Shown one piece after another: positions 12,589-64,000 of a stretch of DNA of 64,000 bases (position 1 is its first letter; each line of letters opens with the position of its first letter). The DNA is from Octopus vulgaris (taxonomy: Eukaryota), in the NCBI GenBank assembly GCA_951406725.2, contig OX597821.1, positions 57,722,001 to 57,786,000 on the forward strand, read 5' to 3'. The position numbers were made by a program, and so were the translations under genes. The notes beneath the pieces are model-generated. The model was not told where the DNA came from, did no database searches, and saw only the letters and a list, made by a program, of their open reading frames with translations.

Positions 12589-12661
12589 CCGTTATTATCG
12601 TATCGGTCCCGATTTCAGAGTTAATTCATAAGAATTTTCTCCTCGTCAGCGATATAAACGG
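12589..12661 (-). ncRNA. Type I hammerhead ribozyme, well preserved
   Basis: ccgtttatatcg-CTGACGA-ggagaaaattcttatgaattaactct-GAAA-TCGG GA CCGA-TA-cgataataacgg. Stem I is TATCG/CGATA plus CCGTT/AACGG, stem II is GGAG/CTCT plus AATTC/GAATT, and stem III is ATCGG/CCGAT. Cleavage triplet AUA. Confidence 0.8.
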
Positions 12662-13211: not shown

Positions 13212-13558
13212 TGGTATTATTAAAATACCATCACGAGTGGCAAGTGAATTATCAGCCGTACAGGGGCAGAATTTTAATAGTAATTAGCTGGCAAACTTTG
13301 GCTGATGAGAAATCAGGCACCTATTTGATGCTAAATTTCGAAACCAGTACCAAGTTGACCAGTATTTACTTGTTCTGACCCAGTAGAGGTAAGACTTTAT
13401 AATTGTTCACTGAAATTTTTTCCTATCAAGTCTATAATGGACTTGTGACTATTCGGTGGTACAGAAGTATTTTTTTACTTCTATTCATTAGCGAAGTTAG
13501 TGCTCGTGTAGTGCCCTTGTGTATATATGTACATATCTAATATTGTATGTATATATGT

Positions 13559-15505: not shown

Positions 15506-15551
<46 letters not shown>

Positions 15552-15559
15552 ATAATAAT

Positions 15560-15886
15560 ATTAGGGAATAAATCCAAACTTACAGGGAAAAATTAGATTT
15601 AGGATTAAATCCAATTTTATAGTATAAATATTATATTATATTAAATTAGAGATAAAACCACTATTAGGCAAATCAAACAGTGAAAAACATAAGCCAATAC
15701 ATAAAATTATTTTTAAAATATAAAAGTTAAAAATTAAAAAAATATTAAAATAATTTAAACTTATAAATTTTAAATATATATATACAAATAGATATATATA
15801 TATATGAATGTATATTTTTATATTTATATATTATTTTGTTTATTAATTAATTAATTTATTTATTTTTTAATTATTTATTTATTTAT

Positions 15887-15918
<32 letters not shown>

Positions 15919-16574
15919 CAAAAGTATAAAAGTTTAATAAAAGATAAAGAGTAAAACACTACGATCGTTTCATGGCTGTACCAATTCGAATAACAATAAT
16001 TTAAATTCAGTTGATAATTCGAGTTATGGTTACAGTCAATCTTCAGGTTAATTGAAATATTTTTAAAATAATCAGAAATATTTAAACAATATTTTTAAGA
16101 TATAAATAATATAATTTTACTTATAATAAACTCTATTAACAAACTAGAAACTTAAAACTTAATAATTATGATTATATCAAAATCGATTATAATTTTAAAT
16201 ATTAATTTTAATTTTTAAGGTAAGAAACCCACCGATAATCTAATGTCAGTAATAGTCTATATCTAGTTACATAAATATTTTTTAAAAAATGACTAATATA
16301 TATAAAAAATTATCAATGGATATATATAAATGTATATGAATATTATAATTAAGATCTAAAATAATCTCTATAAATAAATATATATGCACATATAATAAAG
16401 ACCTAAATTTAAAGATGCACATATAATAAAGACCTATATTTAAAGATGAAATATCTAAATTCAAAAATACAAACAAACAAACTTAAACGAACTTTCGGAA
16501 ATCTTATTTAAAATACTTATAGAAATAATCATTTCGTAGTTGATTTGCCTAATAGTGGTTTTATCTCTAATTTA

Positions 16575-16585
<11 letters not shown>
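15560..16585 (-). mobile_element. PLE 3' end / pLTR with inverted partial copy, inserted in (TA)n
   Basis: Same terminus as 61755-61900 (ttagggaataaatccaaa.ttacagggaaaaa). About 45 bp at 15630-15675 is repeated inverted at 16540-16583. A minus-strand NYEMIISISILNKISE resembles the PLE endonuclease C-terminus. Contains a hammerhead. Confidence 0.65.
15957..16049 (-). ncRNA. Type I hammerhead motif with 68-nt extended stem II
   Basis: aac-CTGAAGA-ttgactgtaacca...tggtacagccat-GAAAC GATC GTA-gtg. Stem III has a palindromic GATC loop, the triplet is GUA, and stem I is short. Confidence 0.65.
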
Positions 16586-16610
<25 letters not shown>

Positions 16611-17005: not shown

Positions 17006-17679
17006 TTTTATCTTCTACCTTGTTAGTCACACATCGTAGAACTGTATTACATACTGATCTCTCTCATGGATATTTTAACTCGTAATGGAAATCAATAATT
17101 AATTAAAATATTAAATAAATGACAATGAAAATAGTAAATAAAATAAATACATAAAGTTATTCGAAACCAAACCATAATTAAATCATCAGACAACAATAAG
17201 TCGTTAACATAGCTTTGTTTATATCTAAAGGGAATTACAATATTAAATAAAAGTAAACGAAACGCTTTTCAATTTAACTTAGTGACTTTTAAGACACACA
17301 CATACACAAATGTTTATGTAAAGTTTGTCTCAATTGAACAGGACATGATGAAAACGAAGTGAGTGCATCAAGAACTAAATGTGCAGTTATTACCGAATTG
17401 ACGTTTGTAAGATGAAATATTGAAGTAGAAACAGATTGTTGGTATCATTCTTGATATCATTCTTGCTAGAGCAAAGTGTGAAATTCTAAAAGAGAGCTAC
17501 GTGTGTCGCTCGCTGGTATCAATAGGGTTTTTGATCTTCAATTTCTTTTTTACATGTTTCAGTCATTGGACTATGGCTATGCTGTAACGCTTCCTTGTAG
17601 AGTTTACAAGTACTTCTTTTTAAAGTCTGGTACTTCTTCAGTCAGTGCCTTAAACTGAACCGCTAAGTTACGAGCACGT

Positions 17680-18295
17680 AAACAAATGAGTTTGCGAGAA
17701 TAGAGAGAACAGCAGATGTCAACTCGGGATTTGCGGTTGCTTTCGGACAACTTATGAGGCAACCATTTTCCCAGTTTAGGAACCTTTGCAAGTTGTTGAA
17801 GATGACGATGAACAGTTGTATGGTTTGAACTAAACTTTATTGCCAATTCTTCAACTGATAATGCAGGATTTTCTTCAAGTAATGCTTCAAGGAGCTTATC
17901 ATCAAAATCAACCGGACGTCCTGTTCGATCTTCATCTTGACGGCTGAAATCTTCACTTCTGAATTTTGCAAACCATCTTCTGCAGGTTCTTTTATTCAAG
18001 CATTCTTTCCCATAGACTGAGTGTATATTTCGAGTCACTTCGGCTGCAGAATTTCCTTTTTTGTACTCATAAAGCATTATGTGCCTCAAATGCTCTTTGG
18101 ATACTTCCATGTTAGAAAGGGTTTTAATCAAAGAAATTTTAATTCTATTATTCTGTAAAATAATATTTAATTAGTTGAAATGTACACAAATGCATAAAAA
18201 TAATTTTTAATTCCTTAGACATTCTAAAATACTATTAAATTTCATTCAATTTTAAAAAAGGTAAAATCGGACAAAACTTATGGGGTGACTTGATA
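17680..18295 (-). mobile_element. Mariner element, 5' half (HTH region of the transposase)
   Basis: MEVSKEHLRHIMLYEYKKGNSAAEVTRNIHSVYG...RRWFAKFRS...KLGKWLPHKLSE. The 5' TIR tatcaagtcaccccataagttttgtccgatttt lies at ~18263-18295. Confidence 0.9.
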
Positions 18296-18296
18296 T

Positions 18297-18900
18297 TAAC
18301 ATATCGCTTGGATTTCTTCACCATTTTCCACTTAATTGTATGTGGTGTGAAGCTGCTCTTTAAATTCCATACGTGGCTAACCGTCTTAGTTGCATCACTT
18401 TTATCGATGTGCCGAAAAGAAGATAGGTAGCTTGCATAACGTCTCTTGAATTTTCCACCACATAACCCGATGTAATTCTTCTTTTCTGTTGATTTGTCTG
18501 GGTGCGTAGCTGTAACTTCAGCCTCGTATATGACGGAATTTATCATACACGCCTGGTGAAGTGGGCAAGCTTCTGGGTCTCGACAGTTACAACTGAGAGT
18601 GGTCTCTTGGTGGGTTTTGCGAGTTATAATGTTCTTCATATTGAAGCAGCAACTATTTGATACTTTTACTGAGCGTTAAAAAATTTCCTGTGTTTATGAT
18701 TTAATAGTTAATGTACCTACGTTAGTCTTAACATTAAGGAAGAAAGGAAGGACGAACCAAATTGTTTTCCTAGATCTTTTTTTTTTTTATCTATTTTTAC
18801 GATTCATATTTTTACATAGAGTTATAATATATTTTATCTTTGAAGCCGTTCTGAACTAGGGCATTTTTATAATATTTGTTCAGAAGAATATTATAAGAAT
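18297..18900 (-). mobile_element. Penelope-like element fragment (linker plus GIY-YIG endonuclease)
   Basis: CNCRDPEACPLHQACMINSVIYEAEV...NYIGLCGGKFKRRYASYLSSFRH...VWNLK...IKWKMV, preceded by RKTIWFVLPF..NVKTNVG. Truncated at the mariner TIR. Confidence 0.9.
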
Positions 18901-30951: not shown

Positions 30952-31176
30952 CACATACATACATATATATACATACACATACATACATACATATATACAT
31001 ACAAATATATATATATATAATATGTATATATATACATACACATACATACATTCATATATATATATATATATATAAGGATAAAATCTATATAAGATTTATC
31101 GAGTAGCTAGCGTGGAAAACCAATTGAGGAAAAAATGAACACAAAGTATATAATTTATTTCTTTAAATATAAAATA

Positions 31177-31545
31177 CATTGTTATATCTTGGGCTATTAT
31201 TATAAGTAACGTCTGACGCGGTAATGGGACTCTAAAGTCAAACTACATCAATAAGCATACACAGGCACCGAAATCGAGGGAAAGAACAAAGAGTCCTATC
31301 ACAGCGTGAGGCGTTACTTATAGTAATAGCCGTTGATATAATAATATATCTACATTTAAGGGGGAAAATTAGCTGGCTTACGAACCACATGATTCCGGGT
31401 TCAGCCCCACTGCGTGGCACTTTAGGCAAGTGTCTTCTACTATAGCCTCGGGTCGACCAAACCCTTGTGAGTGGATTTGATAGACGGAAACTGAAGGAAG
31501 CCCGTCGTATAAATGTATATATATATATATGTATATATATATATG

Positions 31546-31628
<83 letters not shown>

Positions 31629-32274
31629 TCGTGTGTCTGTGTTTGTCCTCCCCCCCACCTTCGCTTGACAACCGATGCTGGTGTTTTTACGTCCCTGTAT
31701 CTTAGCGGTTCGGCAAAAAGGAATCGATAGCTTAAGTACTAGGCTTACAAAGAATAAGTCCTGGGGTCGATTTGCTCGACTACAGACGGTGCTCCAGCAT
31801 GGCCACAGTCACATGATTGAAGCAAGTAAAATGTAATTGGTTTTCCACGCTGGCTATTTGATAAATCATATATAGGTTTTATCCTTATATTAAAAAATTT
31901 AACCGGAATATATTCAGTGCTGAATTGTTCCGAATATACACGTGCAGCCGAGATGAACATGAGAAGCCTCGTTTCATGGATATATAAGTGTGAACATTTG
32001 TACACGCTCAGCTGGATGCGTTGTTGTTCGCTTGGTATGTAGAGATGTTTATATTTATATTTTCTGCTTTTATTGTACCGATGATTGGAGAGCATGTTGT
32101 ACATTCTGACCTTGAAATCATTAATGATATACGACTAAATCCTTTTTTTAAAGGAAATTCTATGTTCATTCCCACGATTTCGGTCCCTGTGTATATTTCT
32201 TGAAGTAGTTTGACTTTAGAGCTCCATTACAGCATGAGGCGTTACTTATAGTAATAGCCTCAGATATAATAATG
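31177..32274. mobile_element. Non-autonomous DNA element with ~110-bp TIRs and TA ends; SINE inserted at ~31370-31830
   Basis: 31177-31290 (cattgttatatcttgggctattattataagtaacgtctgacgcggtaatgggactctaaagtcaaactac...) is the inverse of 32162-32274. An extra right-end copy lies at 31292-31345. Confidence 0.7.
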
Positions 32275-32401
32275 TATATATATATATATATATAGGCAAA
32301 AACATTCGATTGTTTATATTCGAAATAAGTCGTTACTATTGTTAATAATATCTATGGTGAATATTTTTAATTGATATTATTAGCAGTAACATAGGCGATT
32401 T

Positions 32402-32548
32402 AAATTGGCACGAAGCGTTAGGATGTTGTATGCATCAACCTGTTTAGAAATAAGAGCTAAAGTCTCAGTTCAGTAGTTGAATTGAGACTTTACCTCTTAT
32501 TTCTAAGCAGGTTTACGCTTACAGCATCCTAATGCTTCGTGCTAATTT
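32402..32548 (+). other. 72-bp-arm hairpin with a 3-nt loop
   Basis: Arms 32402-32473 and 32477-32548 pair without indels. Read as + strand RNA there are 6 G-U pairs and 4 true mismatches. Confidence 0.85.
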
Positions 32549-35233
32549 TAAAGATATATATATATATATATATAAGAAGCCCGTCTTATATATATATATA
32601 TATTCCTTCCTTAAGTTCTCTCCGTGTGTATGTATATGTATTATATAAAATATATATACACACATACATACACGTATATATATTTATATACATACATACA
32701 TTCATGCAAGCATACATGCATACAAGCATAGATACATACATACATTCATACATGCATAAACTATTTTCTGTCTTCTGTTATATTCGAAGTCATCTATAAC
32801 AAAAATGCTAAACTCAGCATCAGAAAAATAAAAGGAATTGACATCAACAATTTAACATGAAGAATCTACATAACACTAAAAAGTTTGAATATGATACCAA
32901 ACAGTAGACTTTTTACATCAATTTGAAATGCGAATTAAATTTTGTCGAATTCTGTAACTGTCTATAACATATTGTTTTAACATATGACAGAGAAAGAAAA
33001 TTATGAATTTCCAAAGTTTGTTATATTTTTAGTTGAAATTTTATACAAAAGGTCAGAAACAATATATTTGGATTACTTTATGTAAATTGCTAAAATGACA
33101 GAAAATGAAAGTCAGCCACTAAGGAATAGAATAAAATTTCGTTCATTGAACACGCACGAAAAGTTATGCGATCATAGTCACGTTATAATACAGCGAAACC
33201 ATCAGATAATAATGAATATTGATATTACTGTTATTTAAAATTCGGTTGAAGTAATAAAAAGTACTTACCTCCCAGCTAGAATTTATTTTATCTCCCTCTT
33301 TTCTATAAGGAGTATTCTTGGCAATATAAATTTTGTTATCTATTTGAAATTCTACTTTTATAGTCAATCGATATTTCAAAAATTCGTTAAAAGAAAATAG
33401 CCTATCTGCCGCAAGACAACGACTAAAGTTTGACGTTGAAGAAATATCAATGTACTTATAACGCTTATACACTTGATATGCCGTACGTCTCCTTTGGCAG
33501 ATGTCTTCTACTAGGCCGACACATGCCTTGTGAGTGAATTTGGTAGATGAAAGATATATTTTGTGAGTCACACACACACACACTCCTATATATAGGGCTT
33601 TGTATATTTTACCCTAGTATCACTTTGATGGCATGCACTGCTCTCTCACTCAATAATAATAATAGTCGATAACATCGAACTGGTACTAGGCTGGTAGTAT
33701 ATTTTATCGACAGATGAAAGTTAAAGTTGGCGTCGGTTTGATTTGAACTCAGAATATAAAGGGCCAAAGCATTTTTGTCTTTGACGCTCCAACAATTCTT
33801 CTGAAGTTAGAAGTTTGTGACTAAGTATCAATTAATAATATCGAATACTGCATTCGATTAACACATTTATCGATCTGAGAAGGAGGAGAAATATAGTAGT
33901 CGTCGTCTCCAGTGGGACTTAAATTATTGATATAGCACTCTACTGCTTCTGTCAGCCATCCTTTTAACAATGTATAACTTTAATCATGATTTTCAGTAAT
34001 AATATTAAGAAGCAAAGCAACAACATTAAAACATCTTTTATCTATAAGGTTTAAATTAAACGAAAAACTTATAATTAAAATTGTCAGTAATTGAAAAGAT
34101 AATAAAACGTTGATGATGGCAACTTTTAAAAATAATTTTAAGAACACATCTCCAGGAAATATGCATTTGTTACCGAAATAGTGGAGCCAAGCTAGTGCTA
34201 TTATATTATATTAAAAGCGAGAATATATAAACAGGTTTCAATTAAAGACTTCCACCATTAGCGTTTCATATCTGCTTCAGGGTTTCGGAGAATGGTGAAG
34301 GTGCGGGGCCTAATGGTTAGGATGTTGCACACGTTTGCAGGGTTGTAGTTCCAAAATGCAGACCGTTTAGCACATTGAGTTCTTGAACAAAACACATCAT
34401 TTCATGTTGATCAAGTCTGCTCACTGTCAAATGAGTAACCCTGTGACGAACTGAAATCCCGTTCAGAAGGGCCGTTGTGATCTCGATCAGGAGGTTTCAA
34501 TGCGAGTTCATCATCATCATCATCATCATCAACATCAACTACAACACCAGGACAATACTGCCTCGAGTTCTCGGAATCATAAGTACCCGATTTCCATGGC
34601 GTAACAGTGACCGAGATTACATAATTCCATTTGAAAGTGACCCCATTCCATCACAAGGTTACTCTTTTACAGCTGAGTAAACTGGTGCAACGTGAAATGA
34701 AGGATTTTGCTCAAGAACGCAATTCACTGCCCGGCCTGTAATTAGAAACTACGACCTTGCAATCATCAGTGCAATACCCTAACCACTAGGCCAAACAAGA
34801 TCGCAGTTTCTAATCCTTTTCTGCTGCGTTATCATTCTGAACTTCTCTGTGGCCGTTATTTGACGGCTACAGGAAACAGCAGTAAAATCTCCCTCATGTT
34901 ACACACAACCTATTTAAAGTAGGATAATTTAGCCCTAGTAAAATTATGTCTGGATAAAAAAAGGGACGGGATGATTAAAACGGAAATATTTTTCGTCACA
35001 GGTCTTCTGGGTTAGGAACAACAATAGTTTTAAAAAAATTAAACAAACTAATGTAACCTCACCAGTTTCAATTCCTCGTGTTCTCTGTTTAAATATGGAA
35101 GGAAATTTACTTTACTTTTCATGTTTGATTAAATAATAACCAAACGTGTACTTCAATCGATATAATAGTATGTATCTACGCCCTACACAGCAAGTTGGCA
35201 GAAACGTTAGCACGCCGGGAGAAATGCTTAGCA

Positions 35234-35890
35234 GTATTTCGTCTGCCGCTACGTTCTGAGTTCAAATTCCGCCGAGGTCGACTTTGCCTTTCATCCTTTT
35301 GGGGTCGATAAATTAAGTACCAGTGACGCACTGGTGTCGATGTAATCGACTTAATCCGTTTGTCTATCCTTGTTTGTTCTCTTTGTGTTTTACCCCTTGT
35401 GGGTAGTAAAGAAATAGGTATTTCGTCTGTCTTTACGTTCTGAGTTCAAATTCCGCCGAGGTCGACTTTGCCTTTCATCCTTTTGGGGTCGATAAATTAA
35501 GTACCAGTGACGCACTGGTGTCGATGTAATCGACTTAATCCGTTTGTCTATCCTTGTTTGTTCTCTTTGTGTTTTACCCCTTGTGGGTAGTAAAGAAATA
35601 GGTATTTCGTCTGTCTTTACGTTCTGAGTTCAAATTCCGCCGAGGTCGACTTTACCTTTCATCCTTTCGGGGTCGATAAATTAAGTACCAGTGACGCACT
35701 GGTGTCGATGTAATCGACTTAATCCGTTTGTCTATCCTTGTTTGTTCTCTTTGTGTTTTACCCCTTGTGGGTAGTAAAGAAATAGGTATTTCGTCTGTCT
35801 TTACGTTCTGAGTTCAAATTCCGCCGAGGTCGACTTTGCCTTTCATCCTTTCGGGGTCGATAAATTAAGTACCAGTTATGCACTGGGGTC
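35234..35890 (+). repeat. Tandem array of a 184-bp SINE-derived unit (~3.5 copies)
   Basis: gtatttcgtctg... starts at 35234, 35418, 35602 and 35786. Units are almost identical and contain the B-box-like gagttcaaattcc. Confidence 0.95.
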
Positions 35891-36952
35891 GATCTTATCA
35901 ACTGCCCCACCTCCCAAAAAATTTCAGGCCTTGTGCCTTGTGCCGCACTCTAAATTGCAAGTTGGCAGAATCGTGAGCATGTCGGACGGAAAAAGTTAGT
36001 GGCAGTTTTTCCGGCCTTACGTTCTGAGTTCAAATTCCATCGAGGTCAGCTTTGTCTTTGAACCTTTCATGGTCGATAAAATAAGCTCCAGTCGAACACT
36101 GGGGCCGACGTAATCGATTTTCTCGCCCCTTCAAGATTGTTGACCTTGTGCCAAAAACTAAAAATGATTATCATAAAATGGAGAGCTGGCAGGAACATTA
36201 ACGCAACGGACAAAATACTTAGCGGCATTTCTTCTGGTTTTATATCAGTCGTGCACTAGGGTCGATGTAATCGACTAACCTCATCTAAATTTACATGTCC
36301 TCGGCCATAATTTAAAGCTATTATTAAAAACGTTTTCTGTTGTGGTAAATGCATTAAAACTTAAAGGTGTTGAATATTAATAATAATTGCCTCTTGTATT
36401 ATTGACACTTATCATATCAGCAGATTGTTCTAGATTAAAGAATTCCTTAGAGCAGAAGTTGTCGACCATTTTCTATCATTGGAACCTTTCGTATATACTT
36501 TTGTTCTAGTGGACCTTACCTCTATTTGATGTCTAAAATCTAGTTTTATAGATACTTCATTCAAAATTCCTATTTTGTTTTTCACCCATGAACTTGTGTA
36601 GCTTGAACTGTGTAAAATGAAAGAAAAAGAAACCCAGCTGTTTCTTGCAATACATCAATACATACCAATGCATACATCTAAGCAAAATTTTTTCGGGAGC
36701 CCTTAAAATAATATTGTGGATCCCTAATTTACTATTTTCTTGCATGGACCCCCACCTCCACTAAATCTTATATGGACCCTCGGGGGCCATATGGACTTTC
36801 AAGGGCCATATGAGCCCTCAGGGGTTACGTAGGGTTATATTAACCACAAGATACTTTTTTTTAAGATAGCAAAGTGAGATCTGAGGAGACTTTAGCTGCT
36901 TTTTCTAGTTAGTTCAGCAACCGTGAGGTGGATCTTTCGTTGGCTTGTTTTG

Positions 36953-43873: not shown

Positions 43874-44847
43874 CAGGGGTTGGACAAAATAATTGGAACA
43901 GTAGAAATTTAACTCCAATATTTCAGTGAGCCATTATATTACGAATATCCCTCCAAATTTCATTGTGAGTGTTTTTTTTTTTTGTATTGTAGATGGTTTT
44001 ATTTGGAGTAATTATTGTTTGCCAGCATAACATGGCAGTCCTGGTTTCGGACGAATGTTGCTGTAATTTAGCCCCAGGAGACATCATCTCCAGCTGGCTT
44101 ACGACACGATCTGTGTCCTTATATTTTCGAACAAGGATCACAGATCGTGTCGTAAGCCAGCTGGAGATGATGTCTCCTGGGGCTAAATTACAGCAATATC
44201 CGTCCTAATCCAGGACTGCCACGTTATGTTGGCAAACAATCTATACTCCAAAGTACTGTTTCTAAATATTTCTCGTTGTGAGATTTACAAATAGTAATTT
44301 TCTAATGGTTTTATTTATGTAATTTAATGATTATTTCTATCTCTTTTTCAGATCGTAATATAAATTAAGCTAAGATGCATGACCTCACTGAGTTCGAAAA
44401 AGGGCAAATTATTGGAGCTCGAAAGGCAGGAGCTTCCGTCACCAGAACACTTGAACTCCTCGTTTTTCCAAGAGCTACCATATCAAGGACCATGACTGAA
44501 TTTAAGAAGCAGGGCAGAACCTCCAGCAGGAGGAGTAAGTCCGAGAAAACTTCGAAGCTCACTGAAAAAGACCGACGAGAGTTGAATCGCATTGTGATGA
44601 AAAATCACCGGACAACTGCCCCTAAAGTGACAAAAGAGTTGAATCAACATCTAACTACCCTGTGCCATCCAAATTGTTCGCCGTGAGCTCAATAAAGCTG
44701 GATATCATGGAAGAGCCGCCACCAGAAAACTTCTGCTTTCTCATCAAAACATTCAGAAAAGGCTTAACTGGTGAAAAAGATCACAAGAGCTGGTCGAGAA
44801 AACAATGGAAGCAAGTAATATTCTCCGACGAGTACATTTCGTTTTGA
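43874..44847 (+). mobile_element. Tc1-like transposon, 3'-truncated
   Basis: TA-caggggttggacaaaataat 5' TIR. ORF 44375: MHDLTEFEKGQIIGARKAGASVTRTLELLVFPRATISR...KLTEKDRRELNRIV, then after frameshifts WKQVIFSDE. Confidence 0.9.
44002..44252. repeat. Fold-back inverted repeat (~115-bp arms) in the Tc1 5' region
   Basis: ttgctgtaatttagccccaggagacatcatctccagctggcttacgacacgatctgtg and its exact reverse complement flank a ~20-nt loop. A diverged single-arm homologue lies at ~56430-56550. Confidence 0.9.
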
Positions 44848-49487: not shown

Positions 49488-49558
<71 letters not shown>

Positions 49559-49560
<2 letters not shown>

Positions 49561-49805
49561 GTAAATGTAATATGTGACAATTATTCGGTAGCCATGATAA
49601 AACTACCGTGTTTCGGATGCCGAAACTTGGAGTTGGCCGGATGACTGAAGAGATGGCGGCGTGGATTTCTACCTCGGCATCCGAAACTCGGAGTTTTATC
49701 ATGGCTACCGAATAATTGTCACATATTACATTTACAGATAAATTCCTCTATTTACATAATATCGAGGTCTCTTTCATTCTTTTGCTGTCTTACCATTTTT
49801 ATCAA
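49559..49805 (+). mobile_element. Short PLE-type pLTR with inverted partial copy
   Basis: 49559-49623 is the inverse of 49674-49737. Flanked by (TA)n and contains a hammerhead core. Confidence 0.65.
49634..49707 (+). ncRNA. Type I hammerhead ribozyme motif
   Basis: tggccggatga-CTGAAGA(49645)-gatggcg...cggcatcc-GAAA CTC G GAG TT-ttatcatggcta. Stem I is 11 bp with one bulge and G-U pairs, stem III is quasi-palindromic, and the triplet is GUU. Confidence 0.7.
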
Positions 49806-50268
49806 TATATATATATATTATTCACCGTCCCATTTCTAGCAATGCTGGTGTTCACTGCACCTTTGTCACCCTTAGTAACGGTGAATTATTTCCTTCCTAG
49901 TTTTAAATTGCTTCTATCCGCCTTGATTATTTTATAATGTTTACTTAACCGTTTTGTGAAATCAGTTACTAACTTCTATGACATTCTCCATAATATCGAT
50001 AGGAGTGAGTTGGCCTCTACCAACTGTGATGGAATGAGCATTACCCATGAGTATTAATTTCCTGTACGAAATTAGCATGTTAATCTAATGATCTCGCTCA
50101 CATTGGGAAGGATTTTTCCCCCTCTCAATACAAAGAGACCATGTACTTTTGTGGCCAAAGAGTCTACGACTCCTATTTCTAGCAATGTTGGTGTTCCCTA
50201 CACACTTGTCACTGTCAGTGACGGTGAATTATTTCCTTATTGGTTTTAAATTGCTGCGAGCCACCTTC

Positions 50269-55857: not shown

Positions 55858-56897
55858 CAGATAGATAGATGAGGAGGAGGATTATGATGATTACTTCATC
55901 TTAACAGACGATAGCCGCCCCCTCAACGCACACACCTCACCCCCCTCACACAGCACAATCTACCGTTGGTGAGCCCCCAGATTACGTTTAAGGCCAGCTG
56001 CTGACTGACAGAGTTTAAAACATAAGTGACAGATATTCAAGTTTCTTCTACATCTTTTGCCCTTTGGAATCTGATTTTGACGGAATGTTGTTGAAGAACT
56101 AGCATTCGTCTTTTAAGTCGTACAAGTTTTGTGATATATGTTGTAAGAGGCACGAGTTCAGGCAACGTTGTCTATGGAAGAACACCGAAAGGAAAGGTAG
56201 AGACTGATACAGCGTGGCATCAGTGACGTCGCAACTCATTTCGACAGCCGAGTGAACTGGAGTAACGAGAAATAAACACACAGCCTGATCCGTTCCGAGA
56301 ATCGAACTCACTACCTCGTGATTGTAAGCCCGACGATCTCACTACTGAACTATATATTATTTTAGAAAAAATAATTTCTAAATCTCTCAAAGAGAGGTAT
56401 TCAGTAACAGTTCTTTAAACTAAAGGCTATTTGCCAACGCAATGTGGCTGTCCTGGAAGGGATGATGTTGCTGTTGTTTATCCCCAGGAAATATCGTTTC
56501 TAGCTGGCTATACGACACAATATCTGTGTTCTTATATTTTCGAACAGGCAGTTCAGTACTCCATCCAGCACAAGACAACAACTGTAGACTAGTTTCTTGG
56601 TTATTGCCCTTTGTCAACACAGTGTAGCTGCTTGGCTCACCGTTCGAATATGTAGTTTTCAAAGTGACACACAATCACAGATCTCAAAATAGGAACATTT
56701 AGTCTAGTCCAGAGATGGTGTTTTGCGCTGGATGGGAGTGCTGAACTCCCTGTTCGAAAATATAAAGATAAAGTTACAGACATTGTGTCGTATGGCCAGA
56801 TAGAAACGATATTTCCGAGGGCTAAACATCAGTAACATTGTCCCTTCCAGGAAAGTCACGTTACGTTGGCAAATGCCCTTCACGTTATATATATATT

Positions 56898-59592: not shown

Positions 59593-59627
<35 letters not shown>

Positions 59628-59629
59628 GT

Positions 59630-61623
59630 TAGATAAGGCCGGTTTATGGGATTATCCTGGATTTCACGTTCATAAAGCGCATAGCTTTACGTTGTATCAT
59701 CAGATCCCCAAACCTTTTAACTTAAGGTCTCCCTAACGAGTGTCCGCTCTAGAATGTGAAGGAGGAAAGGGCCTCGTTACTCAATGTCACAACAGAGGAG
59801 TCTCTCCCTTTGGCTATCGATCGCAAGTGAGCCTGTTATCTTGTGGGTTCCAATAAGCCTGTAGGAATTTCCTGAAATGCAAGCACGGTCCAAAAACCTC
59901 CATTCTGGAGTTAAGGATGTTCCCCGGGACGAGGGAGTCTTTTTGCTAGGCATAGTTTACAACGCTTGATCCCGTTTATGCAGGGGTCTGGATTTTCTAG
60001 GATTCTCCATGCTATTGTGTATGGAATCCTGTCGTCTTTCACCTGTCATACATGGCTGGCTAGTGATGCAACGTATCTCCTTTCCGGTATCCTGAAAGAG
60101 GATCTGTGGCTGGAGAGGCGTTGTTTGAATGTGTTTCCGGAGCAACTTATGTACCTCCGTGGTCGGGTTTTGGCAGTGTTGTGTCTGATGGTGTTGGCGT
60201 TACTGCTACCGCTGGTGTTGGCAATGGTGCTGTTGTTATTATGGTCATCGTCATTGATGGAGATGCTGTCATTTCCGTTAGGGATACTGCCATTGCTGTC
60301 GTTAATGTTGTTATTGTTGTTATCGCTGGCGATGGTGCTGCCGCTGATTATGTTCGTTCTCTGTTGCTGCTACTATTGATACTATCGTCCTTGCTACTCT
60401 AGTGGCCGTTGGAGGAACTGCTTATGTTGCTGCTGCTATTAGGGTCGACCAGCACCTGAGCTTCATAGGCGACTCACTGGTTTCACAGTGGCCTCTCACT
60501 GGGCAACAGTTGTGATCCCTGCATGAGCATCCTACCTCCGCTCGTGGTCTAGGGGTGCTAACTAGAATGCTCTTAATATTGGGGGCACAACTAAAAGAGA
60601 CCCTAAGGTTGTGCCTTTTGAAAATGCGTATATATGTGAACGTGTGACATATTTATCTATTAAGGAATATCCTACCTACATACGTTTTTACGTTAAGAGA
60701 GAAGAGGTGGGGGCAAACCAAATGATTTTTCTGTGACCCCTCCTTCCACGTATGTTAGGGCCCGGCATATAGGAGACGCAATCCCTAAATCCGCCAGCAG
60801 CTAGAGCCTTGTTATTAGTATGGGGCTGCTGCATCAAAAATCTCCTGGCTGGAGGAAAGGTTCGTGATCCTATTGCTAACAACCTTCACCAGATTTTTTA
60901 ACGTAATGGGTGGGTGACAGGAGGCTGTGTTGATGTACGTTAGCCTCTCATTTGGCTTGAGGTAGGGCCTGTATTACTGAAGCCCAACTCGAGCGTGACG
61001 TCTCAGAAGTCTGTAGGGGAGCCAAGTATGCTAATTAGATATTTCTTAAGCTTGTCTAGGGTGTTTCCGTTTGCTCTTTTAGAGATGGCCAGGGCATCGT
61101 CTCTGTAGAGACCAAAGAGGACACAGGGGAACTTTTTGTTAAGGGTACCAAGGGTATACAACTCGATGAGGTAAGTCCCCATCGCTACGTCAAAGGAGCC
61201 CTTGGGGTCGGATTGCTTGACCCAGGTCGAACCTTTATTGAACAGCACTGCTTTTCTGGCGTGCATAACGACATCCATATCCTTGTCGCTAACGTCAGTG
61301 GAGCCCCTAGCAAAGGAAAGTGCCTTGATCAGTAACCCTTTTGACATAGACGGGTAAAAATTGACTATGTCAAATTGGGGAACATTGCTCTGCCTCTCCC
61401 CTTGTTGGTATTAAACCATGCAACCACCTCGATGGTGCTACACCATAAGGAAAAGTTGGTGACTCACTTTTGTCGTTATTGATGTTTCTCAATATATGCT
61501 TGCTCGCTCGACCAATCTCCGATTTGGCCGGATTAATCAGGCGGCATTTAGGGTTTGAGGCAAAGTTCGGTTAATGATTTGTGATGGTAATAAACGCGTT
61601 CCTTTTAGCTAAGATCTTAAAGA

Positions 61624-61625
<2 letters not shown>
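59630..61625 (-). mobile_element. Penelope-like retroelement (RT plus GIY-YIG), 5'-truncated and decayed, with 3' hammerhead
   Basis: NPKCRLINPAKSEIGR, FDIVNFYPSM, HARKAVLF..TWVK, FDVAMG, GLYRDDALAI, RPYLKPNE..YINTASCHPP, RKIIWFAP, WRILE..RCKLC, ILNSRMEVFGPCLH. Flanked by (TA)n. Confidence 0.92.
59641..59714 (-). ncRNA. Type I hammerhead ribozyme in the PLE 3' end
   Basis: ggtttggggat-CTGATGA-tacaacgtaaagctatgcgctttatgaacgt-GAAA TCC A GGA TA-atcccataaacc. Stem I is GGGAT/ATCCC plus GGTTT/AAACC, stem II is CGTAAAGC/GCTTTATG, and the triplet is AUA. Confidence 0.8.
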
Positions 61626-61673
<48 letters not shown>

Positions 61674-61925
61674 CATAATTTACATATATATATGCATATA
61701 CATATGCATATGTATATGTATGTATGTATATGTATATATATAATAATAATAAATATTAGGGAATAAATCCAAATTTACAGGGAAAAAATCAGATTTAGGA
61801 TTAAATCCAATTTTATATAGTAAAATATTATAAAATATTATTAGAGACAAAACCACTATTTTGCAAAACAAACAAGGAAAGACTTAATCAATACATAAAA
61901 TTTTAATAAATAGTCAAAAAAAACG

Positions 61926-61968
61926 CCACTACAATTGTTTCTTGTCTTGATCGACAATCTTCAGGTGG
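61926..61968 (-). ncRNA. Minimal type I hammerhead ribozyme (left arm)
   Basis: Exact reverse complement of 62014-62056. Confidence 0.85.
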
Positions 61969-62013
61969 ACTTCCAATAAGTCAGTTTTAATTTGAAACTG
62001 ACTTATTGGAAGT

Positions 62014-62056
62014 CCACCTGAAGATTGTCGATCAAGACAAGAAACAATTGTAGTGG
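62014..62056 (+). ncRNA. Minimal type I hammerhead ribozyme (right arm)
   Basis: CCAC-CTGAAGA-TTGTC gatcaa GACAA-GAAAC AATT GTA-GTGG. All three stems pair, the stem III loop is the palindrome AATT, and the triplet is GUA (cleavage after 62052). Confidence 0.85.
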
Positions 62057-62147
62057 CGTTTTTTTTACTATTTATTAAAATTTTATGTATTGATTAAGTC
62101 TTTCCTTGTTTGTTTTGCAAAATAGTGGTTTTGTCTCTAATAATATT

Positions 62148-62224
<77 letters not shown>

Positions 62225-62238
62225 CATATACATATACG

Positions 62239-62277
<39 letters not shown>

Positions 62278-64000
62278 GCACACGCACACACTCACACATT
62301 AGGGAGCGCAAATTGAAAGGGATCTAACGAGGTGTGGTTGCTTTAAAAGCTCGTTAGCTCTTTGCTTAGAAAAATAGATTTATATGATTAAGGTAAATAT
62401 TGGAGAGAAATGTTTGTTGAATCAACTCTCCTTTTCGCATGGTCATAAGCAGTTGCCAAATTTCGTAATGTTATATCTACAGTACAAACACTTGCCTGTC
62501 TTTCCATGTTTCAGAATTTTCATCTAAGAATCCTTTCGAAGTCCAAGTTTGTAAAAATATTTATTTGCAATTCCTGTTACAAAATCCAATAGTTTTTGCA
62601 TGCATTGATGCAAAATCTACTTCTGACTTCTATGGAGTATCTTAGCATTTATCTTATTCTTGAAAGATCTATCTAATCTTTTCGGTTTAGGAATTTATTT
62701 ATTGATAAAAGAGTGAGGGAGAGTAAAGATGGTGTGCTAACAGAGTTGTTGGTACGTCGGACAAAATGCTGAGAGTCATTTCTTTTAGCACATTATTTTC
62801 TGAGTTCAAATCCCGCCGAGGTCAACTTTGTCTTCCATCTCTTCAAGGTCGATTAAATAAAAGTAACATTCAAGTTGATGTAGTTGACTTGTCCTTTTCC
62901 CTCAAAAATTACTGGCCCTAGGCCCTGCAATGGACCAACGACTTGTTCGGAGAGAATGTTGTGATTTTAGTCACTTATATGCAGTAAGCCGGATAAACAG
63001 ACTTATGAGTCCAAGGGCCAAACAAAAATACGCTCTAGAAATTCGTCCCGTTTGAGAAATGTAGGAAGCTTAGGAAGTTCTGGTGTCGTGGTGGAAGGGA
63101 CCGAAACAGCTACAGAGCTGCTTCCTCGTTCTGGTGAGGCATCGTCTCCTTCATTCGGAGACAGAGTACAGCTGCACTGCCAGCACACAAGTGTTTACCT
63201 TAGAAATACTCTCACTTGTAACCTTTGTTTTGTCAAGAGATACAACGTTACCGTGTTTCTACGTATTGTCCTATATTTGTGATTCCTTGATAATAATGGT
63301 CCGGGAAAATACTGCAGTTGTTTTTCTTTTTGTTTTTATTCAGTAAATTCACTCATCATTATCTCTCTATCGATCTATCTGTCTATATTTATCTCTCTAT
63401 TTATCTCCGCCTACATCCATCTCTCAATCTATCTATTTACTTATTTACTTCTTTATTCAAATTACTTCTTTATTCAAATCAGTGACAACATTACAGAATG
63501 AAATGTTTGTCGTTGCATTTAAGACATTACGAATGTACGTACCTACGTATGTACGTTTAAATGTGTGAGTGCGTGCATATTTTCTCGTGACCGTTAAGAT
63601 ATTTCTGGGTTTTTTTTCTTCCATTGTATCAGATGTTTTTACTTGGTGTATACCTGGTGACACGTTGTTTTCTCCACGTTTTTTTTTCAATTTTGGTCGC
63701 AAATATTCGTTTACTGAATTTTTTTGCCTTTGTTTACAATTTATAAGGAAGAAGCATGTCTCGATGCTGTTCTCATTGTTAAACTCTGAAGAAAAAACAT
63801 AGTCTTAAAAAAAAATAGAAGAGAGAACTCCACTAACTTCCCTGTTTTTATTTCGTTAGGAAAAATAATTTTTTTTCTGTATCAAACTAATCCAAAAGCT
63901 GGAATAAAATCTTTCGTAGACTTTATAAAATCCAAGATTTTGGAGCACGTTTTTCTGCCTCGATAACCAATAATAATAATAATGATGATTTTAAATTTTG

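Follow-up and report, generated by a model that had tools for sequence, protein, structure and literature searches.

A head-to-head palindrome with two hammerheads in an Octopus vulgaris (TA)n tract, probably formed from two separately primed cDNAs

Described PLE insertions and hammerheads

Insertions in which an inverted, 5'-truncated copy accompanies a tail present on one side only have been described for PLEs (PMC8557442, PMC3846280), and these two accounts bear out the statement in the original prediction that inverted pLTRs are known for this group. At the enzyme level, PMC11167929 describes a PLE protein that nicks the two target strands and extends both of them, two RT start sites that bound the tail, and uncleaved RNA as the main substrate. 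How PLEs build inverted ends is still an open question according to PMC8557442 and PMC11167929. Dual minimal hammerhead ribozymes (min-HHRs) on opposite strands, ~100 to 700 bp apart, were reported by Cervera and de la Pena in 2014 (PMC4209133); the same work calls the G10.1-C11.1 pair highly conserved in minimal hammerheads and describes a single minimal motif that did not cleave and dimers that cleaved weakly. Such hammerheads are also present in Hydra elements, the insertion target of which is (TA)n (PMC8557442). Retrozymes, in turn, are thought to derive from PLE pLTRs (PMC7229834; bioRxiv 10.64898/2026.07.22.740005).

The locus described here lies in the window (i.e., the whole stretch of 64,000 nucleotides that was analyzed) and works like a PLE inverted-pLTR insertion. 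It resembles the inverted-pLTR insertions of EN+ PLEs (PMC3846280, PMC8557442) in its head-to-head 5'-truncated copy, its junction palindrome, its tail at one end, its AT-rich or microsatellite target, and the hammerhead within the repeat; it differs from those described there in having no ORF, in having two nearly full-length arms, and in the length of its tail (~70 to 88 nt versus 30 to 40 bp). With the minimal type I hammerheads of metazoan PLEs reported in PMC4209133, it shares a 4-bp stem I and a palindromic helix III that requires a dimer, whereas its stem II has 5 bp rather than 7 to 8, the pair called highly conserved there is U-A rather than G-C, and only 45 nt separate its two motifs. 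Members of the Hydra clade (e.g., Hydra-1_Obim and Penelope-5_HM, as given in PMC8557442) are similar to the locus with respect to the (TA)n target, the CTGAAGA(T/G) motif, the short stem II, and the self-complementary helix III. Nevertheless, the palindrome hammerhead and its flanks do not match any of the four Hydra rows compared, nor do they match the hammerhead of the neighboring Hydra-type remnant, and the element contains no RT. The clade is recognized by RT and EN motifs (RWK, DKT, CxCX5C, no CCHH). Since the element is without an ORF and since a CxCX5C linker and a Hydra-1_Obim-like RT occur only in that neighbor, we do not file the element as Hydra.

Metazoan non-LTR retrozymes (PMC7229834; bioRxiv 10.64898/2026.07.22.740005) are likewise short and non-coding, with a type I hammerhead and a unit of ~250 nt. 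They are, however, described as head-to-tail tandems that give circular RNA, whereas at the locus the copies face head-to-head and each strand has a single sense ribozyme. A tandem retrozyme at the locus was ruled out, as neither copy of the family in the window is tandem. The architecture and the idea of a dsRNA source are already in print, as are hammerhead pairs on opposite strands. No description of this particular family was found in the openly accessible papers searched, and Repbase/Dfam or further supplements may hold one.

Structure of the palindrome and its hammerheads

Alignment to the reverse complement paired positions 61829-61990 with 61992-62152 at 98.8% identity over 162 columns, so that the near-identical arms of ~160 bp proposed in the original prediction for 61829..62152 are confirmed. 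When the 7 central bases are left out, the only difference between the arms (61829-61987 and 61995-62152) is an additional C at 61915. These 7 bases (61988-61994) are unpaired, and the palindrome is thus not spacer-less as had been claimed. The center is best read as a head-to-head junction between 61987 and 61988 and not as a turn at 61991 (i.e., the right copy begins at 61988, and the left copy lacks the first 7 nt of the right copy). The extent originally given is correct for the palindrome and too short for the element, which reaches 61741 on the left; with its unpaired tail of ~88 nt included, the element measures 412 bp (61741-62152; Table 1). Because 61741-61830 matches one end of the second family copy in the window (15547-15633; 92% identity), the unit is asymmetric.

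Table 1. Coordinates of the palindrome element, its flanks, and related features in the window
Feature	Position	Strand	Basis
Second family copy, long end plus ~990-nt arm, joined to 59-nt inverted short-end arm, in (TA)n	15547..16600	-	Alignments, fold
Decayed, 5'-truncated Hydra-type PLE of another family, RT and GIY-YIG remnants	59626..61625	-	Translation versus Hydra-1_Obim by eye (from the supplement of PMC8557442)
Left flank (target), (TA)n plus degenerate TA-rich sequence	61626..61740	.	Sequence
Unpaired tail (long end) of left copy	61741..61828	-	92% identity to 15547-15633; predicted 13-bp stem-loop as in second copy; indistinct outer boundary within (TAA)n/(TA)n
Left copy of repeat unit, sense on minus strand, without first 7 nt of right copy	61829..61987	-	Arm alignment
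Minimal hammerhead, type I, with GUA; cleavage predicted between 61930 and 61929	61926..61968	-	Motif and alignment
Head-to-head junction; 61988 is recurrent 5' start in other copies	61987..61988	.	Center variants in 3/4 runs; 7 distinct left breakpoints
Right copy, recurrent 5' start to short end	61988..62152	+	Arm alignment, contig junctions
Minimal hammerhead, type I, with self-complementary ACAAUUGU for helix III of a dimer; cleavage predicted after 62052	62014..62056	+	Motif and fold
Right flank (target), (TA)n/(TACA)n	62153..62280	.	Sequence

Both copies in the window carry an unpaired tail of ~70 to 88 nt with a predicted 13-bp stem-loop at one end only, and at the other end both stop 13 to 18 nt past a TCTCT motif. 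Both ends of both copies meet (TA)n (i.e., insertion into (TA)n in two of the two copies). No target-site duplication is readable for the palindrome element, both flanks of which are (TA)n. There is no ORF between or beside its arms, and neither window copy contains one. The second copy has very unequal arms, its inverted short-end arm (16540-16598) being only 59 nt long, and there is no hairpin at its junction. Its hammerhead (15956-16050) has a long stem II (a region of ~70 nt) and a helix III palindrome, ACGAUCGU. A very AT-rich stretch of ~330 nt lies between the hammerhead and the tail region of this copy and is absent from the copy at 61741.

Each arm of the palindrome holds the same 43-nt type I hammerhead, and the two point away from each other. 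The motif consists of a 4-bp stem I, CUGAAGA, a 5-bp stem II with a 6-nt loop, GAAA, C-AAUU-G, and GUA, in agreement with the original prediction of two divergent hammerheads (62014-62056 on the plus strand and 61926-61968 on the minus strand). A strict hammerhead descriptor gave three matches in the window (both palindrome motifs and 13297-13354) and none in each of 100 simulated windows of equal dinucleotide content; an Rfam search of the whole window gave no match at the gathering score. The core is complete (i.e., CUGANGA, GAAA, UH, stems I and II, and a self-complementary helix III), and to this extent the hammerheads can be called intact, as predicted. The first pair of stem II, however, is U-A and not G10.1-C11.1. 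As this pair is not G-C in the Hydra rows compared either, we expect a lower activity and an unaffected fold. The stem II region may alternatively pair with the downstream arm, a possibility for which two copies are too few to permit a judgment.

RNA folding predictions gave -250.3 kcal/mol for the full palindrome, and forcing an active hammerhead within it would cost +75.8 kcal/mol on either strand; at the level of prediction, the hairpin and the ribozyme fold are therefore mutually exclusive, as originally proposed. The antisense arm would be transcribed first and is predicted to capture the sense arm while the latter emerges, with the hairpin already dominant at that stage. Even for a lone arm, the active fold is predicted to be disfavored (by +6.0 and +5.7 kcal/mol), and the isolated motif has a predicted probability of 0.018. 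Two motifs are predicted to cofold through an 8-bp ACAAUUGU helix (cofold MFE, -22.0 kcal/mol), and helix III is also self-complementary in the second copy and in the neighboring element. The predicted misfolding of the lone arm and the predicted cofolding of the dimer fit the cleavage results given in PMC4209133. In the normal context of the hammerhead, cleavage would require a dimer formed through this helix.

Family junctions and the origin of the palindrome

Part of the stretch was contained in 20 of the 24 runs listed by a run search (7 organism labels), and none of the holders among these 24 rows was an RNA run. Six rows taken by guess for RNA share 0.44 to 0.48 of the sequence words and do not count as evidence. 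Contigs of four public DNA runs from three studies (X1 and X2, label A; X6, label B; X5, label C) were aligned to the locus. Between 1,355 and 14,947 contigs aligned per run, and the summed depth on the tail was 2e5 to 1.8e6; this contig depth marks a high-copy family, although summed depth does not equal copy number. Among 24 listed of 252 rows, the loose contig ends before 61743 are (TA)n in all four runs; the same holds in X2 for the ends before 61829 and in X1 for the ends behind 62141. Exact-pattern scans gave no matches in metagenome contigs, prokaryote genomes, or viral contigs.

The junction itself is variable. Four variants of the center, with TCAAA, CAAA, CA, or C added, were found across three of the four runs and three organism labels; in each of them, one copy starts from 61988 and 0, 2, 5, or 6 nt are missing from its partner, with an overlap of 0 to 2 nt. 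The variant with CA added is the commonest (depth, 1397 in X2 and 336 in X6) and equals a 4-bp snap-back at TTCA/TGAA. TTCA or CA directly precedes 61988 in six of the six such rows listed. Seven other partner breakpoints (61804 to 61919) are joined to 61988 (among 15 listed of 72 joints and 12 listed of 37). In these contigs, the start at 61988 recurs and is joined to many different inverted partners. The exact junction of the window was matched by none of the 32 contig pieces listed. A hammerhead is missing from at least one arm in all of the 15 joints listed (of 72), the sides of which (20 to 28 letters) are below the 30-letter threshold of reliability. The depth at 61987 is 4817, 967, and 429 in X2, X6, and X5, respectively, and that of the next bin is 486,073, 166,175, and 46,133. 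Only about 1% of the summed depth crosses the center, and full palindromes with two hammerheads are a small minority of the family junctions. Palindrome centers are often under-sequenced. Eleven of the listed joints link 61899-61920 to 62069-62078 without a hammerhead, 17 to 26 nt downstream of the predicted cut and beside a U8 run; this cluster may reflect a stop of RT or a template that had been cleaved and trimmed.

On the basis of these structures, we consider it probable that the palindrome is a head-to-head join of two cDNAs made from the hammerhead-bearing end of a high-copy, non-coding repeat and placed in (TA)n, likely as a single insertion through borrowed PLE enzymes (probably of the Hydra type). 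In such an event, a PLE endonuclease would nick both strands of (TA)n, and RT would start at two fixed RNA sites flanking the tail, giving a long end and a short end. Because both arms include sequence 5' of the cleavage site, the RNA template would be uncut. One cDNA would reach the recurrent 5' start at 61988, the other would stop 7 nt short of it, and the two cDNA 3' ends would be sealed with little or no microhomology. Two starts and joined 3' ends would account for a long end, a short end, a head-to-head junction, and truncation of either arm, as in both copies of the window, and the second copy repeats this layout of long and short ends with arms of ~990 and 59 nt. A common template is also indicated by a minority base carried by both arms (A at 61923, T at 62059), where 89 to 99.8% of the family depth reads C, at a site beside an A run where alignment may contribute to the difference. 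Against two cDNAs, the tail is longer than the published 30 to 40 bp, and the TTCA or CA preceding 61988 fits a fold-back or an inherited junction equally well. Since no ORF-bearing partner of the family was found, we only infer that borrowed PLE enzymes mobilized the repeat. The PLE insertion product proposed in the original prediction is supported, and the structural marks of such an insertion (i.e., an inverted 5'-truncated copy, a one-sided tail, and a hammerhead in the repeat) are all present. As to its route, for which a fold-back or a template switch had been suggested, the data favor two separately primed cDNAs, and a snap-back is kept as a rival. We regard the locus as a real, young-looking, and ordinary insertion of a known kind.

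In a snap-back, which we judge unlikely but the serious rival, a single cDNA would reach the 5' end of the RNA, fold on a terminal TTCA..TGAA mini-hairpin, and copy itself, and an endonuclease would then trim one arm at the tail; the center of the window would be a TTCA/TGAA junction after a loss of 2 nt. The commonest center variant is precisely such a 4-bp hairpin, the recurrence of TTCA or CA before 61988 and the rare allele common to both arms are in line with this route, and self-priming was proposed for palindromic junctions in PMC3846280 and the tail was ascribed to endonuclease resolution in PMC8557442. Nevertheless, the second copy, with its unequal arms and no hairpin at the junction, would need an extra template jump, as would the partners truncated 70 to 180 nt from the center, and the combination of a long and a short end matches the two RT starts measured in PMC11167929.

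An artifact of assembly or of library fold-back seems to us highly improbable. The absence of the exact junction from the contig pieces listed and the microsatellites on both flanks, where assemblies are weak, speak for such an artifact. In opposition to this, the mirror ends exactly at the short end of the family and the flanks beyond it differ, an indel distinguishes the arms, the same layout recurs in the second copy and in other families of the window, and sister junctions occur in three of the four runs under three organism labels. We give equally little credence to an inverted duplication at the DNA level or to two insertions homogenized by gene conversion. Hairpin-forming arms can be homogenized. 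Nonetheless, both outer ends are the family-specific ends defined by the RNA, the junction lies at a start common to many other copies, and separate insertions would not be expected to bring their 5' starts within 7 nt of one another. A MITE or foldback DNA transposon was ruled out by the asymmetric ends and by junctions that differ between copies.

The original prediction also viewed the palindrome as a possible self-silencing unit that yields ~160-bp dsRNA. As a selected unit, it would be kept for dsRNA/siRNA production and for shutting off the ribozyme, which would limit the family. The predicted energies of the hairpin and of the active fold are compatible with such a role, and inverted repeats of Penelope yield siRNAs in Drosophila according to PMC3681739 and PMC3136932. 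Inverted Penelope copies are in this respect like the locus, i.e., PLE inverted repeats as a source of dsRNA; in Drosophila this rests on small-RNA data, whereas at the locus the dsRNA is predicted from folding alone. These siRNAs, however, did not silence Penelope efficiently (PMC3681739), and the family studied here is very abundant. As a lone arm is predicted to be inactive and a dimer to be needed, there would be little activity to switch off. With the center crossed by about 1% of the summed depth and with one or both hammerheads missing from all of the 15 joints listed, a dedicated self-silencing unit has in our opinion very little chance of being correct, and we do not retain it. A read-through RNA of the locus is predicted to form a ~160-bp hairpin unable to cut, i.e., a passive dsRNA by-product. 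The long RNA hairpin is, in these models, likely a by-product and not a switch.

With its many copies, one fixed 5' start, two fixed 3' ends, and numerous variants of the junction, the family is well suited for telling two-primer synthesis from snap-back, and uncut RNA is suggested as the template in the animal. The extra value of the locus lies only in this fixed start and in the junction spectrum of the family. A more far-reaching view, which we offer as doubtful speculation, is that the family RNA begins with a 4-bp mini-hairpin (TTCA-TAATT-TGAA) ~65 to 70 nt upstream of an uncut hammerhead and that this hairpin seeds or seals the inversion. The palindromes would then mark where the RNA of a non-autonomous, Hydra-type element begins in vivo, with the ribozyme of this element bypassed in copying, and the ~1% of full palindromes would represent a growing, self-made dsRNA reservoir against the very abundant family in an octopus-like host.

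Neighboring elements in the window

The Hydra-type remnant to the left adjoins the palindrome element at a distance of 115 bp and carries a CxCX5C linker like that in section 11 of PMC8557442. Its own hammerhead (59648-59708) differs from that of the palindrome and lies only ~22 nt from the 3' end of the remnant, and no DNA similarity between the remnant and the palindrome family was found (best E value, 0.43). The remnant suggests an octopus-like host and shows that (TA)n-targeting Hydra enzymes have been active here, but the palindrome does not descend from it. A reading of the palindrome as the 5' pLTR belonging to this adjacent RT copy was ruled out on the basis of the other hammerhead, the missing DNA similarity, the far greater decay of the remnant, and the (TA)n between the two. 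An asparagine-rich insertion lies in its endonuclease region (60230-60370); N-rich inserts have been described in rotifer Penelopes (PMC3846280).

None of the four frames of the remnant was matched in Pfam. Among 38 frames chosen from the 100 listed in the window, two were matched (i.e., a mariner HTH and DUF3915), and no host gene or intron context was found among these 38 frames, a search that is blind to short exons. The mariner transposase HTH remnant (PF17906; E value, 4e-23) is located at 17604-18170 on the minus strand, next to another fragment of a Hydra-type linker and GIY-YIG domain (18300-18750, minus strand).

Three further inverted elements in the window, which belong to other families, also lie with one end at (TA)n and with the opposite end ~80 to 105 nt away, in support of the two-cDNA reading; these three were taken from 11 inverted-repeat rows, and most of the other rows are without a clear layout. 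Two of them (32399-32551 and 31164-32288) are older inverted repeats with ends at (TA)n and ~90 to 105 nt off, in which no intact hammerhead core was found. The third (49533-49762; also delimited as 49557-49810) is a head-to-head arrangement in (TA)n with a one-sided tail of ~80 nt and a hammerhead-like core (CTGAAGA...GAAAC), and its left arm is cut within the motif. Two related palindromes (44002-44252 and 56423-56880; 79% alike over 119 nt) are without a canonical hammerhead core. Hammerhead descriptor matches at 13297-13354 (plus strand) and 12596-12654 (minus strand) lie on opposite strands, face outward, and are ~640 bp apart. Finally, a tandem array of ~184-bp units (35234-36120) has partial similarity to 62748-62860.
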